A stretch of 64,000 bases of DNA from Deltaproteobacteria bacterium (GTDB taxonomy: Bacteria > Myxococcota_A > UBA796 > CAJQPC01). Below are positions 16,097-35,138 of the stretch, one piece after another (position 1 is the stretch's first letter; the number at the start of each line of letters is the position of its first letter). The stretch is from assembly GCA_016717595.1 (NCBI GenBank), contig JADKFE010000001.1, positions 182,445 to 246,444 of the forward strand, read 5' to 3'. The notes beneath the pieces are model-generated. The model searched no databases. It saw only the letters and a list, made by a program, of their open reading frames with translations, and had not been told where the DNA came from. The position numbers and the translations under genes are program-made.

Positions 16097-17197
16097 ATGC
16101 TGCTCTTCGCCCTGCTCTCGCTCACCGGCTGCGTCACCGAGACGGGCATCGTCAAAGGCGGCGACGACGACACCGGCTGCGCCCCCAACGTCGTGTATGA
16201 CGACCTCGACGGCGACGGCTACGGCGCGGGGGAGCCCATCGCGGCCTGCGGCCCCGCCGAGAGCGGTCAGGTGATCGTCAACGGCGACTGTGACGACTCC
16301 AACCCCGACGTCTCCCCGGCGGCGATTGAGCAGTGCAACGACGTAGACGACGACTGTGACGGCGACGTAGACGACGGCGTCGGCGGCGCGACCTGGTACG
16401 CCGACGAGGACGGCGACGGCGTCGGCGGCGCGATGACGACGGGCTGTGAGGCCCCGGACGGCGCGCTCACCACCGGCGGCGACTGTGATGACAACAACGC
16501 CAACATCGCCCCCGGCGTGCCCGAGCTGTGTGACGGTGTGGACCAAGACTGCGACACCTTCATCGACGAGGACGCTGAAGACGCCACCACCTGGTACTAC
16601 GACGGCGACGCGGACGGCTACGGCGTCGAGCCCTCAGTAAAAAACTGCGCCCAGCCCCCGGGCTTCGTGTCGAACGACGACGACTGTGACGACACCGACG
16701 CCGCCTTGGCCCTTGACTGTGAGACGGGCGACCCCGCGGGCAGCGTCGTGTGCACCGGCGGCTATCTGCCCTACACCTTCACCGACACCAGCGCCACGGA
16801 GCCCGAGCTGATCCTCATGGGCGTGTATGAGCCCGACCCGTCCAGCGGCGGCGCCATCACCGTCGATATTGACCGTGGCGCCACGATGGTCCTGCACCTC
16901 TCCTCGTACACGGCCGTGGACTGGACGATCAACAACAACGCCGGGGCCACCATCGACGAGATCCTCGTCTCGGGCTATGAGGCCCAGACGGTCAACGCGC
17001 CGAGCGGCGTGCCCGTCACCATCCGCACGGCCGCCACCACGGGCACGAGCTTCGGCTACTTCTGCGGCTACAGCCTGCCCTACAACTACGGCGGCTGCGA
17101 CACCGACAAGCTCATCGCCGGGGTCGAGAGCTACACCGGGCTCACCATGGCGAGCTTCGCCGGGTGTTACCAGGCGCGCAGCTTTAAGGTGGAGTAG
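16097..17197 (+). CDS. lipoprotein with MopE-like putative metal-binding Cys/Asp repeats
   Basis: Lipobox 'LSLTGC' with a GGAG upstream. Repeats 'DCDDSNPDVSPAAIEQCNDVDDDCDG', 'DCDDNNANIAPGVPELCDGVDQDCD'. Confidence 0.6.
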   Translation: MLLFALLSLTGCVTETGIVKGGDDDTGCAPNVVYDDLDGDGYGAGEPIAACGPAESGQVIVNGDCDDSNPDVSPAAIEQCNDVDDDCDGDVDDGVGGATWYADEDGDGVGGAMTTGCEAPDGALTTGGDCDDNNANIAPGVPELCDGVDQDCDTFIDEDAEDATTWYYDGDADGYGVEPSVKNCAQPPGFVSNDDDCDDTDAALALDCETGDPAGSVVCTGGYLPYTFTDTSATEPELILMGVYEPDPSSGGAITVDIDRGATMVLHLSSYTAVDWTINNNAGATIDEILVSGYEAQTVNAPSGVPVTIRTAATTGTSFGYFCGYSLPYNYGGCDTDKLIAGVESYTGLTMASFAGCYQARSFKVE

Positions 17198-17211: not shown

Positions 17212-18651
17212 TCAGCCGCCGATGAGCCTGCGGTGCTCGGGCATCATGCAGCGGCTCTGCACCACGTCGATGCCCGCGTCGGAGAGGCGCGCGGCGGCGA
17301 GATCGTGGCGGATGCCGAGCTGAAACCACACAAACTTGGGCCGCCAGGGCAAGGCGAGCAGCTCTTCAGCGATGGCGGGGAGCTGGTCGGGGCGCCGGAA
17401 GATCTCGACCCCCACCACGGGCGCGGGGAGCTCGGCCAAAGACGCCACGGCGGCGGCGCCCAGCCAAGGCCGCCCGGCGAGCTTGGGGTTCACGCCGATC
17501 GGCTGCCAGCCCCGGGCGTGGAGGTAGGCCGGGACGTAGAAGGCGGGCTCCCAGTCGCCCTCTTTGGCGCCGAGCACGGCGAGGGAGACGGGGGTTTGCA
17601 GGATGGCCCGCAGCGCGGCGTCATCGGTGAGGATCGGGGGGGGGGGCGGGGGGGGGGGGGCCGGGCGGGGCCGCCGGGGGGGGGCGGGGGGGGGCGGGGG
17701 GGGGGGGGGGGGGGGGGGGGGGGCGGCGGGGGGGGGGGGGGGGGGGGGATGACCACCGCTGCAGGCTGCGCGGCTGAGGCGATCGTTGATGGCGACGCCC
17801 AGGGCGGCGTCGGCGGAGGGCTCGGCGAGGAGCAGATCGACGCCCAGGGCGTCTAAGCGCCGCAGCTCGGCGTACAGTCGCCGGGCGTGGTCTTGGGGCT
17901 CACCGGCGCGGAGGATCGCCACGGTGAGGCCTTGGGCGCGGGCGACCTCGGCCTCAGCGTCGGGGGTGTGGCTCAGGCGCAGGGCCGTGCGTGGGGCGTA
18001 GTGGCCGGGCAAGGTGCCGGGGGCGACGGTCTGGGAGGCGCCCAAGGGGCCGATGATCGCGGCGATGGCCTCGGCGGACACGCCGCCGGGGCGCAAGAGC
18101 GCGGGGACGGGGCCCGAGAGATCGACGATGCTGCTCTCCACACCGACGACGGCGGGGCCGCCATCCAACACAAACACCCCGGGCAGCTCCTCGCGGACGT
18201 GCTCGGCGGTGGTGGGGCTCACCCGGCCAAAACGGTTGGCCGAGGGCGCGGCGAGGGGGCGCCCGAAGGCCCACAGGAGCGCCTGGGCGACGGGGTGGGC
18301 GGGCACACGCAGGGCGACGGTCTCGCGGCCGCCGGTGACCTCGTCCGGCACGCCGGGCTTGCGGCGCAGCACGATCGTGAGCGGGCCGGGCCAGAGGGCG
18401 GCGGCGAGGGCCTCGGCGCGGGGGTCGGGCTCGGCGTACCGCGGCAGCCACGCGGCGTCGCCGAGGTGCAGGATGAGCGGGTGATCCACGGGGCGGCCCT
18501 TCGCGGCGAAGATCTGGCGCAGGGCGAAGGGGTTGAGGCCGTCGGCGGCGAGGCCGTAGACCGTCTCGGTGGGCAAACCGACGAGCTGACCGGCCTGGAG
18601 CAGCATCAGGGCGCGAGACATCGCGGCGGGTTCGGGCAGGGTGGGGGACAT
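17212..18651 (-). CDS. L-threonylcarbamoyladenylate synthase (Sua5/TsaC type) fused via poly-Pro linker to a CoA-binding domain
   Basis: YrdC motifs 'LPTETVYGLAADG', 'KGRPVDHPLILH', 'SANRFGRVSPTTA'. SUA5 domain 'GVESSIVDL...HYAP'. About 41 codons of Pro-rich linker. Then 'LAVLGAKEGDWEPAFYVPAYLHARGWQPIGVNPK' (CoA-binding/YccU-like). Confidence 0.75.
   Translation of the reverse strand: MSPTLPEPAAMSRALMLLQAGQLVGLPTETVYGLAADGLNPFALRQIFAAKGRPVDHPLILHLGDAAWLPRYAEPDPRAEALAAALWPGPLTIVLRRKPGVPDEVTGGRETVALRVPAHPVAQALLWAFGRPLAAPSANRFGRVSPTTAEHVREELPGVFVLDGGPAVVGVESSIVDLSGPVPALLRPGGVSAEAIAAIIGPLGASQTVAPGTLPGHYAPRTALRLSHTPDAEAEVARAQGLTVAILRAGEPQDHARRLYAELRRLDALGVDLLLAEPSADAALGVAINDRLSRAACSGGHPPPPPPPAAPPPPPPPPPPPPAPPRRPRPAPPPPPPPPILTDDAALRAILQTPVSLAVLGAKEGDWEPAFYVPAYLHARGWQPIGVNPKLAGRPWLGAAAVASLAELPAPVVGVEIFRRPDQLPAIAEELLALPWRPKFVWFQLGIRHDLAAARLSDAGIDVVQSRCMMPEHRRLIGG
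17636..17758. repeat. G/C-only low-complexity tract (111 G + 12 C on the + strand; runs G11, G13, G9, G9, G28, G31)
   Basis: Counted by hand from the printed lines. It lies inside the Sua5 fusion ORF and reads as CCC/CCG proline codons on the minus strand. Confidence 0.9.
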
Positions 18652-18759: not shown

Positions 18760-20371
18760 ATGACGACCACCGCCCGCCGAATCGCCCAGGCCCTCGCCGC
18801 GCGTGGGGTTCGCCACGCCTTCGGCATGCCCGGCGGGGAGACGCTCCCGTTGTTGCAGGCCCTGGATGAGGAGGGCATCCGCTTCATCTTGATCCGCCAC
18901 GAGGGCAGCGCCGGGTTCGCCGCCGCCGCCGCGGCCCAGCTCAGCGGGGCGCCGGGCGTGTGTGTCTCCACCCTGGGCCCCGGCGCCACGAACCTCACCA
19001 CGCCCCTGGCCGGGGCCCTGCTCGACCGGGACGCCGTCGTGGCCGTGACCGGCGAGGGCCCGCGCGGCCTGCGCAACGTCTACACCCACCAGGTCCTCGA
19101 TCAGACCGCGCTGCTGCGCCACGCCGTCAAACACGCCGTCACCCTCACCGCTGAAGAGGCGTGGCGAGAGGTGCCCCTGGCCCTGCGACACCTAAACGCC
19201 GGGCGGCCGGGGCCCGTGCTGTTGGCGCTGCCTCAAGACGTGTCCGTCGCCGAGCAGCCCCGGCGCTTCGTGGACCACTTTGAGCCCGCCCCGACCTCGC
19301 CCGCCCCCGAGGCCGTCGCCGCCGCCGTCGCCACCCTTCGGCGCGCGCGGCGACCGTGGGTGCTCGTGGGCTTGGGCGGGATGTCCGAGGCCGTCGCCGC
19401 GCCCCTGCGTGTGGTGGTCGAGGCGCTGGGCGCGCCGACCTTGACCACCTACAAAGCCAAAGGGGCGCTGCCGTCGTCGCATCCCCTCAGCGTCGGGGCA
19501 TTTGGGCTCTCCAGCACCGCCGACGCCGTGTGGCAGCGCGCGCTCGCCGAGGCGGATCTCATCCTCGCCGTGGGCTTGGACCCCGTCGAGCTGCGCCCGC
19601 AGTGGTTGCCGGGCTGGGACGCCTCTGTCCCCGTGGTCACCGTAGACCAAGCGCCGCCGCTTGACCTCGTTCACCCGCTCAGCCACTGCCTCGTCGGTGA
19701 CGTGCCCCGGGCCTTGGAGGCCCTCGCCGCCGCGCTGACCCCAGACGCCCCGCCGCCTTGGCCCACAGAGACCGTCGCCCGCTGGCGGCAGGCCCACGAC
19801 GCCTTGTTTGAGGAGGACGGCGACAGTTTGGGCCCCGCGGCGGCGGTTCGTGCGATGCAGGCCGGGCTGCCCCAAGACTGTGTCGTCACCCTCGACGTCG
19901 GCGCGCACCGCATCACCGCGGCCCAGCTCTGGCGCTGTGAGGCGCCCAACCGGCTCTTGCAGTCAGAACGGTCTGTGCAGCATGGGCTATGGCCTGCCCG
20001 CGGCCATCGCCGCCAAGCTCACCCGCCCCGAGGCCACGGTGGCGGCGCTCATCGGCGACGGCGGGCTGTGGATGACCTTGGGAGAGCTGGGCACGGCGGC
20101 GGAGCTAGGGCTTGACCTCGTGATCGTCTATTTCTCCGATCAGAGCCTCGCGCTCATCGAGGAGAAGCAGCGGCGAATGCGCCTGCCGCGCCTGGGCGTG
20201 AGCTTCCAGAACCCCGAGGTGACGTCGTTGGCCCGGGCGTTCGGCGCTGAAGGCCGCCGGGTCACCGAGGCTGGGGCCTTGACCGCCGAGGTCGCCGCCG
20301 CCGTCGCTCGGGGTGGGCTCAGCGTGATCGAGGCCGTGATTGACCCGCGCCACTACGCGCGGCAGGTCTGA
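18760..20371 (+). pseudogene. thiamine-pyrophosphate-dependent enzyme (acetolactate-synthase-like), frame-broken as sequenced
   Basis: ATG 18760 follows GAGAGGAGG. 'HAFGMPGGETLPLL'. After about 19960-19972 the sensible sequence ('NGLCSMGYGLPAAIAAK', 'GDGGLWMTLGELGTA') continues in the 19808..20371 frame. 'cagtcagaacgg' looks like one extra base. Confidence 0.75.
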
Positions 20372-21836: not shown

Positions 21837-23002
21837 GTGACCGTGAACGAACAAGACCCGCAGCGCGCGCAGACCGAGGCCGAGACCCGCGACGCCGCGC
21901 GTTTTGCGCTGGGCCTCATGGCGCTGGCGGCCTTGTTCTTTGGGGTGTTGAGCCTGGGATACGGCCTACGCGCGCCCTTCGTCGAGCTTGGCCGCGAGGG
22001 CACGGTGAGCTGGATGTTCTGGAAGCTCGACACCTTAGACACCGCGGCGCTTCGGGCCCACCCGGGCGGGCGGGTGATGTGGCTGGTGGGCAGCTCTGTG
22101 ATCCGCGAGTCGTTTGACGAGGCGCTCGTGAACCAGGGCCTCGCCGAGCGAGGCAGCGTGTGGCGGGTGCAGAAGTTCGGGTTTAACCGCGGCGCCGCGG
22201 GCCTCGCCGCCGGGCTCGTCGCCGAGCTGCCGATTGAGCCCGGGGACACGGTCGTACACAACGTCTCCGTCGGCAACCTTCGCGCCGACTGGCTCAGCTT
22301 CGCCAACATCCCTGAGGAGCGACTGGTGAGCCTGCTCACCGCTGGGGAGCTCCTCGGGCTCAAGGAGCTGAGCGCGCAGGAGAAGCTCAGCGCGCTATTG
22401 ATGATCCCCGAGGGGTACTGGCGGTTTCGGAATGAGCACATGAACGGCCTCACCCGACTGTTCGCCTGGCCCATCTGGGGCGGAGCGTTTCCAACCCCCA
22501 AGACGAAGAGCTACAACCTCACCTTCCGCACCCTGGAGCGTGAGCGCAAGAGCCCCCGCAGCTTCGCCGACCCCACGGCCTATCGACTGTATCAAGACAT
22601 AGAGCGCACGGATCTCTCCCCGGAGCAGATCAACACCGCGGCTTGGTCCGGATGCGCCGTCTGTGTGAGGCCCGGGGCGCGGCGCTGCTGCTCATCGACG
22701 TGCCGCCCACGCGCCTGTTTCAGTCCCAGCTCATGTCCGCCGAGCTGCGCGCGGTCTGGGATGTCTGGCGTGAGGAGCAGGGCGTTCATTATTTCCCGCA
22801 GATCCCTGAGGACGACTACTTCGACCTCATCCACCCCAACTTTCGGGGCCGCGCGGCCCTGACCCCGGCGCTCGTGGACTGGATCTTGGACCCCCAGCGC
22901 GGCGCGCCGACGCCTTTGGGCGACTGGACCCCGCCGACCCACACGCCGGGCGCCGAGGCCGACCTGGGCTTGGATCTCGAAGCTGAAGAGGAGCCTGAGT
23001 GA
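21837..23002 (+). pseudogene. MBOAT-associated accessory protein (DltD/AlgJ-like role inferred), frame-broken as sequenced
   Basis: It starts 2 nt after the MBOAT stop. The sensible sequence switches from frame 21837.. to frame 22643..23002 ('VRMRRLCEARGAALLLIDVPP...HPNFRG') near 22638-22646. Confidence 0.5.
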
Positions 23003-27643: not shown

Positions 27644-29318
27644 ATGCCCCGCGAACCCGCCGCCGACCGCACCCACCACCACGCCGCGCTTGAGGCCCTC
27701 GCCGCCTCTCTGCAGGCCGCCTCCGCCGCGCGCCCGCCCGGCGGCCCGCCCATGGCCGAGCGGGTGGACGCGCTCTTGGCCGAGATCGGCGATCCCTGGG
27801 CCAGCGTCGTGGTGAAGGTCGGCGGCACGAACGGCAAAGGCAGCGTCGTGGCGATGCTGCGGGCTTGCTGCCAGCGCGCGGATCTCGCCGTGGCCACCTT
27901 CACCGGGCCGCACCTGAGCCGCCTCACCGAGCGGATCACCCTGGATGGCGCTGAGGTCGGCCCCGAGCCGCTGCGCCGGGCGCTCTTGGAGGCCCAGGCC
28001 GCCGGGGAGGCCGTCGTGGCGCGGCTGGGCCCCGGCGCGCGCCCGAGCTTCTTTGAGCTGCTCTTGGGCGCGGCGGTGATCCTCGCCCGGGCCTGGGGGG
28101 CCGAGGCGCTCCTCGTCGAGGCCGGCATCGGCGGGCGAGGCGACGCCACCTCCCGGCTCTCGGCCCAGGCCGTGGCCCTGGTGAGCGTGGGGGAGGATCA
28201 CCTCGACAAGCTCGGCCCGACGCTCACCCAGGTCGCCGCCGAGAAGGCGGGCCTGGCGCGGCCAGGGGAGGCGCTGATCGTGGGGCCGGGGGTGCCGCCG
28301 GAGCTGCTCACCGTGGTTCACGCCGCCGCGGAGCCGGGGGTGCGGGTGACGCAGGGGTGGGTTCGGCCCCGCGGGGGCGGCCGCGCGTGCGGGGGCCCGG
28401 GCGAACGGCCACGAGGCACAGAGTTATGCACACGGGGTTGGTGGTAAGGTGGGCCATCGCCGCGCAGGTCATCGCGGGAGACCCCAGGCGCCGATACGAA
28501 GGGGGACACCCAAGCACGCCCCCGCTCTCCCCTCCGCTCAAACTTCCACCGGCTCCTCTGTGTTCCTCCCTCTGTGTACTCTGTGCCTCTGTGGTTCGTT
28601 TCCTGGCGCTTCGAGTCGCCCCGACGCTCCTTCGCCGGTGAGCCCCTCGAAGAAGGCTCCACGATGGCACGACCGCATCCACGCGCTCCCCAACCCGAAG
28701 AATCGGCCGAGCCAGAGGCCAGTGGAGAGTGGGGAGACTGCGCCGCTGGTGGCATCAGGCGCCCCCTTCGCCACGGTGGCGCTGCCCGGCTTGGGCCCCG
28801 CGCGCCTGTCCCTCGCTGGGGCGCACCAGGCCGAGAACGCCGCCGTGGTCGCCGCGATCTGGGCCGAGCTTCACCGCCAGGGCCTCGTCCCCCTCGACGC
28901 GCTGCTCGGCGTCACCGAGGCCCGCTGGCCTGGCCGTCTGGAGCTTGTGCCCGGGGCCCCGGCGTGGCTCTTGGACGGCGCGCACAACCCGCCGGGCGTG
29001 GCCGCCTTGGCCCAGGCGCTCCCGGCGTACTGTACGGAGTCCGACCGGGCGCTGCTGGTCGGCGTGAGCGGCGGTCACGAGGCGGCGCTCTTGGCCTTGG
29101 CGGCCATCCCCGGCGAGCTGCACCTCGTCGGCGGCTTCTACCGCGCCGCGCCTGTGGAGACGCAGCTGGCCCTGCTCCCGCCCGGTCGTGTGACGGCGCG
29201 CTGGCCCGACGTGCCCACGGCCCTGGCCGCGCTCTCCACCCGGCGCGACAAGGCGCTCATCGTGGTGGCGGGATCCTTGTTTCTGGTGGGCGCGGCCCGG
29301 GAGGTCTTGGCGCCATGA
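27644..29318 (+). pseudogene. FolC/Mur-ligase-family protein 1 (folylpolyglutamate-synthase-like), split by a non-coding insert
   Basis: N-terminal half: 'VKVGGTNGKGSV', 'VEAGIGGRGDAT', 'GEDHLDKLG', 'EKAGLARPG'. The frame stops at 28447. The C-terminal half resumes in another frame: 'LSLAGAHQAENAA', 'LLDGAHNPPG', 'VVAGSLFLVG'. Confidence 0.7.
28400..28735. other. ~335-bp non-coding insertion inside folC-like gene 1 (possible MITE-like element or structured RNA)
   Basis: All three + frames read as junk or closed here, and the segment has visibly more A/T than the flanks. There is a 12-bp perfect inverted repeat (gaggcacagagt at 28413-28424 and actctgtgcctc at 28578-28589). Four CTCTGTG copies lie at 28556, 28570, 28579 and 28587, plus one inverted CACAGAG at 28417. 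Boundaries are approximate. Confidence 0.5.
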
Positions 29319-34145: not shown

Positions 34146-35138
34146 CTACTGCACCCCCCCCCACCCCTCCGCCGCCGGCGCCACAGGCGGCGGCGCCGCC
34201 GTCCCACGCCACCCCCAGAGCTGGTCAAACAACGCCGCCATCGCCGTGATCGACCCATACTCCCCACCCACGCCGACCTCCAAGATCGGCCCCACAGGCT
34301 CCCCGGGCCCGGCCACGCGGTTCCGCAGCGTCACCTGGGCCTCGCCCGTCCCGGCCTGCCCGCCTTGCTCCGCCCCAGGCCACACCATCCAGGCCTCTAA
34401 GTACGAACGATCGGCGAGGTTCTGCACCTCGGCCACGCTCAGCGAGACGTTCCGGTCTAGGGTCTTGCCCTCACGCTCCAACGTCGCGATGAGCGACAGG
34501 GTGGTGATCACGTCCCCGGCCAGCTCAACGCTCACGCCGGTCATGGCCAGCTCGTGCAGGCCGAGCTTTCGTAGGCCTTGGGTCACCACACGGTCCCCCT
34601 CGGGGCTCCACAACAGCGTGAACTGCTCATAGAGCATGATCTCGGCGCCCAAGGCGTCGATGCGCAGGGCCGACCAGGCCTCGCGGCTGTAGACCTCGCC
34701 CGTGGCCACGTCTTCAGGCACGCCGCCGACGGCCTCGGCGAAGGTGAGCGCCGCGCGGTTCGCCCGCTGGTTCTTCGCCTGGGCGTCGCCCAGGGGGTCG
34801 ATGGCGATGGAGAAGACGACCACCTCGGGCGAGCCGGCGAGCACGGCGCGGTCGGCCTCGGTCAAGGTCTCGCCGTACTCACCCAAGGCCGACGGATCCC
34901 AGCGGCCCCAGGCATCCGCCGGGAGAACTTGCAGGCTGGCCACCGGGCGGGTGGCGGCGCGGCGGGGGAGGCGCCGGACCATCTTGAACTGATCGTCTAA
35001 GGCGGCGCGCAGGGCGTCTACGTCGGCGTCCGGGCACTCGGCGGGGCACCAGATCGCCACCGTGGCTCGGGCGTCGGGGACCACGACGGGCGGGGCGTTC
35101 TGCGTGCTGAGGGTCAGAAGCGCGGAGAGCAGAGACAT
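34146..35138 (-). CDS. hypothetical protein
   Basis: 330-aa ORF with ordinary composition. No motif recognised. Confidence 0.4.
   Translation of the reverse strand: MSLLSALLTLSTQNAPPVVVPDARATVAIWCPAECPDADVDALRAALDDQFKMVRRLPRRAATRPVASLQVLPADAWGRWDPSALGEYGETLTEADRAVLAGSPEVVVFSIAIDPLGDAQAKNQRANRAALTFAEAVGGVPEDVATGEVYSREAWSALRIDALGAEIMLYEQFTLLWSPEGDRVVTQGLRKLGLHELAMTGVSVELAGDVITTLSLIATLEREGKTLDRNVSLSVAEVQNLADRSYLEAWMVWPGAEQGGQAGTGEAQVTLRNRVAGPGEPVGPILEVGVGGEYGSITAMAALFDQLWGWRGTAAPPPVAPAAEGWGGVQ

Follow-up and report, generated by a model that had tools for sequence, protein, structure and literature searches.

An A/T-free tract joining sua5 to a CoA-binding gene in one Myxococcota assembly is probably a technical artefact

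Introduction

Known bacterial contingency tracts are uninterrupted and about 7–20 nt long. They are associated with surface or restriction-modification genes, close to the promoter or the 5′ end, and recur in orthologous loci with length polymorphism. The poly-G/C contingency loci of Campylobacter, Neisseria and Haemophilus resemble the locus described here, which lies within a 64-kb stretch of DNA (the window), in that both contain an in-frame G/C homopolymer in which a change of ±1 nt alters the product. In contrast to those loci, the tract in the window is 114 nt long and interrupted; it is found at the 3′ end of a gene with a housekeeping role, and no relative has it.

A second point of comparison is technical. 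In two-colour sequencing chemistry a G is called from no signal and a C from red only, and poly-G arising from signal loss has been documented (PMC6129281). As in the poly-G of two-colour Illumina instruments (NextSeq/NovaSeq), the G runs in the window begin abruptly after correct sequence, contain sporadic C but no A or T, and are absent from independent assemblies. The window tract differs in being internal, in having no complementary poly-C half and in being followed by normal sequence, and frameshifts near it hint at long reads.

By Pfam, the two parts of the reading frame that spans the tract are ordinary members of the Sua5/TsaC2 and YccU-like CoA_binding_2 proteins, yet no fusion of the two was present among the homologues retrieved. 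In relatives of the window the locus is like other translationally coupled pairs of the ATGA/GTGA type, the sua5 stop codon overlapping the CoA-binding start by 4 nt, whereas in the window this overlap is overwritten.

Results

Composition of the tract and of the reading frame through it

The features of the locus are as follows.

17212–18651, minus strand: apparent fused ORF of 479 aa (Sua5, a Pro-rich 38-mer and a CoA-binding domain), from ORF translation
17765–18651, minus strand: body of the sua5/tsaC gene, threonylcarbamoyl-AMP synthase, from Pfam and homologues
17749–17764, minus strand: private, poorly alignable flank, from BLAST ends and junction alignments to relatives
17635–17748, no strand assigned: A/T-free tract of 114 nt, absent from the related loci L001–L009
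17212–17634, minus strand: body of the CoA_binding_2 (PF13380) gene, from Pfam, tblastn and junction alignments

On the plus strand the tract comprises 101 G and 13 C, with no A and no T, and its G runs measure, in order, 11, 13, 3, 4, 1, 9, 9, 28, 2 and 21 nt, the two longest being C28 and C21 on the coding strand. The runs are broken by C alone at all 13 interruptions, without A or T; every interruption is of the G-to-C/C-to-G type and none of the 13 is a transition. A preliminary description of this DNA had placed the tract at 17636–17758, as 123 nt with 111 G, 12 C and no A or T. Those boundaries need correction: the A/T-free part is 17635–17748, 114 nt, and, since 17749–17758 reads ATGACCACCG, the interval 17636–17758 has a composition of 103 G, 16 C, 3 A and 1 T. 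The same description listed G runs of 11, 13, 9, 9, 28 and 31 nt, all of which are present save the last, which is G21 and not G31.

Read on the minus strand, the tract forms 38 codons (27 CCC, 4 CCG, 4 GCC, 2 CGG and 1 CGC) that encode 31 Pro, 4 Ala and 3 Arg, with consecutive Pro runs of 7, 12 and 8. The peptide string had been given correctly, though as 41 codons, where 38 residues fit 114 nt; the length is, as claimed, a multiple of three, and ORF 17212–18651 on the minus strand is open throughout its 479 aa.

The tract is far above chance expectation, the probability of such a stretch at the window GC content of 69.6% being about 1e-18 per position (0.696^114). Other A/T-free stretches reach at most 29 nt in the 64-kb window and 35 nt across 542 kb of related loci, and the longest homopolymer in the window outside the tract is 9 nt. 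Within the 64-kb window the position of the tract is internal, not at a contig end, and the tract is G-rich over its full length with no G(n)-C(n) join. The sole other window homopolymer of at least 8 nt, a C9 run at 34154–34162, is found at the 3′ end of a minus-strand ORF (34146–35138), with more C-rich runs alongside.

Pfam assigns residues 17–189 of the 479-aa ORF to PF01300 (Sua5_yciO_yrdC; E = 5e-52), residues 192–296 to PF03481 (Sua5_C; E = 2e-17) and residues 356–473 to PF13380 (CoA_binding_2; profile positions 2–115 of 116, E = 6e-25), which bears out the domains proposed earlier, Sua5 upstream and CoA-binding downstream; the Pro-rich segment occupies residues 302–339. Both parts are ordinary full-length members of the Sua5/TsaC2 and CoA_binding_2 families, and the sua5 body is orthologous to stand-alone proteins of 301–303 aa. 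The 479-aa fused ORF owes its existence to the tract alone.

Changes in tract length would alter the product. With one nucleotide more or two fewer, the frame yields a 343-aa product that stops four codons past the tract; with one fewer or two more it yields a 386-aa product. In both, the Sua5 domains are untouched and the CoA-binding domain is lost. The preliminary description had expected a TGA directly after the tract in a shifted frame ("cga tga"), and the shifted frame does stop, only four codons later and not at once. Formally, the tract would switch its product with length, as would any in-frame homopolymer.

Close relatives carry two separate genes at the locus

We compared the window with the same locus in L001 (GCA_016706815.1), L006 (GCA_016719515.1), L007 (an ENA wastewater MEGAHIT contig), L002–L005, L008 and L009, all of which are assemblies of other strains and not independent reads of the same sample. 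On the sua5 side, L001, L006 and L007 are 98.0–98.7% identical in DNA to the window up to 17757/17765, and their BLAST alignments to the window stop at 17757–17765. On the other side, from 17635, the DNA identity is 98.1–98.3% for L001 and L006 and 93.2% for L007. Between these matching flanks lie 15 nt in L001 and 23 nt in L006 and L007; the corresponding interval of the window is 121 or 129 nt long.

In L001, L006 and L007 the junction reads ...GCC TAC GGC GCA AAG GAG CCC CGA TGA, and ATG ATC CTC ACC... begins inside it, so that in the close relatives the stop of a 303-aa sua5 gene overlaps the start of a 141-aa CoA_binding_2 gene by 4 nt (ATGA). The more divergent loci, L002–L005, L008 and L009 (83–87% DNA and 88% protein identity), likewise carry two genes in this arrangement, with GTGA as the overlap. 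The CoA-binding body in the window corresponds to residues 2–141 of the 141-aa protein of the relatives; by tblastn its 140 aa are 98.6–100% identical to L006, L001 and L007, and it lacks an ATG or GTG start of its own. Convergent with this gene and 14 nt from its stop is a plus-strand gene (16097–17197) for a protein of 366 aa that is rich in Asp and Cys and has copper-binding repeats of the MopE type (PF11617 in the annotation of L001 and L006).

At all nine close Myxococcota loci, two of which (L004 and L009) are one and the same contig, sua5 and the CoA-binding gene are separate and overlap by 4 nt, and the tract is missing. In the relatives aligned across the junction (L001–L004, L006 and L007) the tract site holds only C4, and no intermediate tract lengths were seen. 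The preliminary description had proposed a comparison of orthologous Sua5 loci, and had put forward both a contingency tract and an evolved linker; the finding of two separate genes at nine of nine close loci, without the tract, is an outcome that the description itself had named as refuting, and supports neither of these readings. No CoA-binding homologue (E <= 1e-5) was detected in 78 more distant Sua5 loci, for which up to 3 kb of stored DNA on each side was available, and on these sequences the pairing of sua5 with CoA_binding_2 appears to be lineage-specific. The best related locus in the genome_contigs collection had 88% identity, with none closer, and a literature search on the accessions of the relatives returned no papers.

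Neither the fusion nor the junction was found elsewhere

A search for Sua5 homologues among 5.8 billion protein clusters returned stand-alone proteins throughout its best 120 matches, all of about 300 aa (275–360) with only PF01300 and PF03481. These include P0001 (97% identity) and P0002 (88% identity), and the closest homologue, P0124, is identical at 296 of 302 aligned residues. In the 90%-identity cluster, the 15 proteins listed of 21 members are stand-alone and 301–303 aa long, and proteins of this cluster end in ...DRLSRAAYGAKEPR or close variants. With the CoA-binding part as query, the best 150 representatives out of 1.84 billion were mostly stand-alone proteins of 135–160 aa. Nine longer proteins among them were checked by Pfam and none was a Sua5 fusion; they carried enoyl-CoA hydratase (ECH), a PLP enzyme, formyl transferase, glyoxalase or no second recognised domain. 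An exact look-up of the 479-aa product found no record.

The junction specific to the window reads ...GGTGGTCAT-C(n), and a 24-mer across its right-hand side had no match in genome_contigs and none in metagenome_contigs. A 24-mer common to the window and the close relatives likewise had no match in metagenome_contigs.

These searches bear on the idea that the two domains and the poly-proline linker evolved as one conserved protein, which would give a Rosetta-stone link between t6A synthesis and the CoA-binding protein. A functional or expression link is plausible, given that the genes are adjacent with a 4-nt overlap at nine of nine close Myxococcota loci, and CoA_binding_2 is known joined to other enzymes (ECH, PLP enzymes, formyl transferase and glyoxalase). 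However, the architecture occurs in none of the listed homologues and is missing even at 98% DNA identity, and the codons of the linker are not those of an evolved sequence. Its Pro codons are 27 CCC and 4 CCG with no CCT or CCA, and its third codon positions are 100% G/C, whereas Pro usage across the window is 54% CCC, 34% CCG and 13% CCT plus CCA; the sole other run of at least four Pro in 32 long window ORFs is written CCA CCC CCG CCG. The codon make-up of the tract is not like that of an evolved linker. Stand-alone homologues and separate genes in close relatives refute a conserved fusion, and we give this explanation almost no credence.

The sequence beside the tract is also private to the window

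On the coding strand the private flank reads ...GCC TGC AGC GGT GGT CAT, in place of the last 6–7 codons and the stop of sua5. Of the 14 nt that adjoin the tract towards sua5, 8 are unlike every relative; on the CoA-binding side the ATG/TGA triplet is missing and the window sequence picks up at ATC CTC ACC. The last residues of P0124 are YGAKEPR, and their counterpart in the window is CSGGHPP. Expansion of the native C4 run by simple slippage is ruled out, because slippage would keep both flanks intact and here about 14 nt of one flank are unalignable and the ATG/TGA overlap is lost. Between strains, sua5 varies most in its C-terminal tail (YGAKEPR, YRAPE, YREPR and others), which makes the tail a plausible site for a metagenome consensus to fail.

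The private flank has no evident likeness to Illumina, Nextera, ONT or PacBio adapters. A faded read would be predicted to place the C positions of the tract in line with the true downstream sequence, and no correspondence was apparent by eye. We also considered a foldback (inverted-duplication) chimera, in which the left flank would recur, inverted and with errors, to the right of the tract, as happens in hairpin chimeric reads. Positions 17749–17766 do align to the reverse complement of 17604–17623 with 15 of about 19 matches, but 453 of 2000 shuffles of the segment matched that score, which is not significant, and after the first 18 nt or so the ordinary orthologous end of sua5 follows, not an inverted copy. 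A foldback is very improbable.

A real insertion would account for some features of the junction

The flanks and the tract could alternatively record a real and recent, strain-private complex indel, in which a G/C-only tract replaced the stop/start overlap and produced a Sua5-(Pro-rich)-CoA-binding fusion. C28 and C21 would then be extremely prone to slippage, with Sua5 made constantly and the CoA-binding domain made in one of three tract-length phases. Several features fit: the ORF is in frame with stop and start codons gone, the insertion sits at a domain boundary tolerant of insertions, length changes (+1/−2 or −1/+2 nt) truncate the product to 343 or 386 aa with the Sua5 domains spared, and the CoA-binding body, having no start codon of its own, is producible only as a fusion. 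Long-read assemblies are, moreover, able to span tracts beyond the reach of short-read assemblies.

Against this, relatives at 98–98.7% DNA identity show C4 only and no intermediates, the junction has no second occurrence in two public collections, the altered flanks are not explained by slippage from C4, and no Sua5-CoA_binding_2 fusion was found elsewhere. No source is known from which 114 nt of DNA made only of G and C could have come, and the interruptions are of G<->C type at 13 of 13 positions, with no transitions. Consecutive prolines stall ribosomes and require EF-P, and Pro runs of 7, 12 and 8 would stall translation. Homopolymers of 21–28 nt would be extremely unstable, and they are longer than those of any bacterial contingency locus known to us. 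A real insertion is unlikely on this evidence, and its reported length and sequence may themselves be imprecise. That an insertion of more than 100 nt in one wastewater Myxococcota strain also acts as an extreme slippage switch, with Sua5 on and the CoA-binding domain dependent on phase, we consider rather improbable.

The assembly contains other private indels, and long G or C runs are common in public contigs

Two further private frameshifts, each of 1 nt, are found in the window assembly 2 and 5 kb from the tract within 14.5 kb compared. The gene for a TPP (thiamine-pyrophosphate) enzyme at 18760–20368 on the plus strand is split over two frames near 19963–19968 by one extra base, the window reading CCGTTCTGACTG where L006 and L001 read CCGTT-TGACTG; the enzyme is intact at 536 aa in L006 and at 534 aa in L002, and has a different private break in L001. 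The gene for a 386-aa hypothetical protein at 21843–22999 on the plus strand, intact in L006 and L001, is frameshifted near 22639, where a CCC run has become one C shorter (AAGCC-GCGG versus AAGCCCGCGG), a homopolymer-length error of the sort typical of long-read consensus. L006 has a private split of its own, with a phosphodiesterase in three pieces. Private split genes in the window, L001 and L006 show that this group of assemblies carries uncorrected indel errors. As a candidate for an analogous artefact, a C12 run in L006, at a point where its alignment breaks, was uninformative, as it sits in a strain-variable intergenic spacer. The spacer between the Mur-ligase-like and RNase T genes is 402 nt in the window (28356–28757) and a differing, C-rich 76 nt in L006 (224–299).

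A scan of IMG/VR contigs for G28 found at least 120 stretches, and we examined 85 of the tracts. Seventy-one lay no further than 300 nt from where the stored stretch ends, and 14 were internal. The internal tracts (for example those in L104, L137, L157 and L166) often resembled the tract of the window, being long G or C runs broken almost only by the complementary base, and several of the 14 were one-sided. Assembled contigs in public collections commonly contain runs of at least 28 G or C. Two of the viral contigs, L092 and L143, have G(n)-C(n) joins in their interior, about 30 plus 35 nt long, the form expected when an assembler merges two poly-G read tails from opposite strands.

Discussion

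The private tract, the split locus, the damaged flank and the indels nearby are direct observations, from which we infer a technical origin for the tract and the platform or assembly step that may lie behind it. The preliminary description had left two options, a real tract and an assembly artefact. We regard the tract as probably an artefact of sequencing or assembly; this option is favoured, not proven, by a comparison with the assemblies of relatives as opposed to reads of the same sample.

In outline, poly-G base calls of low information would have entered the consensus of this one assembly, and the tract is probably not in the genome. The true locus would be a 303-aa sua5/tsaC gene followed by a 141-aa CoA_binding_2 gene, the TGA of the first overlapping the ATG (or GTG) of the second, and from the layout of the relatives it is most likely that the window genome also carries two translationally coupled genes here. 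About 15–23 nt over the gene overlap would have been replaced by 114 nt of G/C and about 14 nt of unalignable sequence. The two genes read as one ORF because no stop codon can be written with G and C alone and the length is divisible by three, and the frame would be kept by chance one time in three. G calls from dark cycles of two-colour Illumina sequencing are one possible source of the tract, and a stall in a long read or a consensus error at a strain-variable site may be another. The nearby frameshifts suggest long-read consensus. We know, however, of no well-documented poly-G artefact for long reads, and the tract has no poly-C half of the kind left by merging two opposite-strand poly-G tails, which also counts against an artefact.

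The location of the tract, inside the 64-kb window and away from a contig end, counts against an artefact as well. It lies exactly at the gene junction, removes the stop codon and keeps the frame, and a viable real fusion needs all three. By our own estimate the chance that a random artefact comes to lie no more than 10 nt from a gene boundary is about 2%, a coincidence that the strain variability of the site offsets only partly.

A real tract would be hypermutable coding sequence of unusual length within a housekeeping operon, a strong G-quadruplex and an EF-P-dependent element and, to our knowledge, the longest coding homopolymer switch in a bacterium. Most likely, though, the tract is present in the file and not in the organism. 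If it is an artefact, the 479-aa "Sua5-CoA-binding fusion" should not be annotated or counted as a new domain architecture, nor can it be used as Rosetta-stone evidence, the locus being two translationally coupled genes. It would also mean that junk poly-G can occur within a long contig, hold a frame open and mimic a proline linker, so that the tract, though of little biological interest, would serve as a useful warning for annotation.
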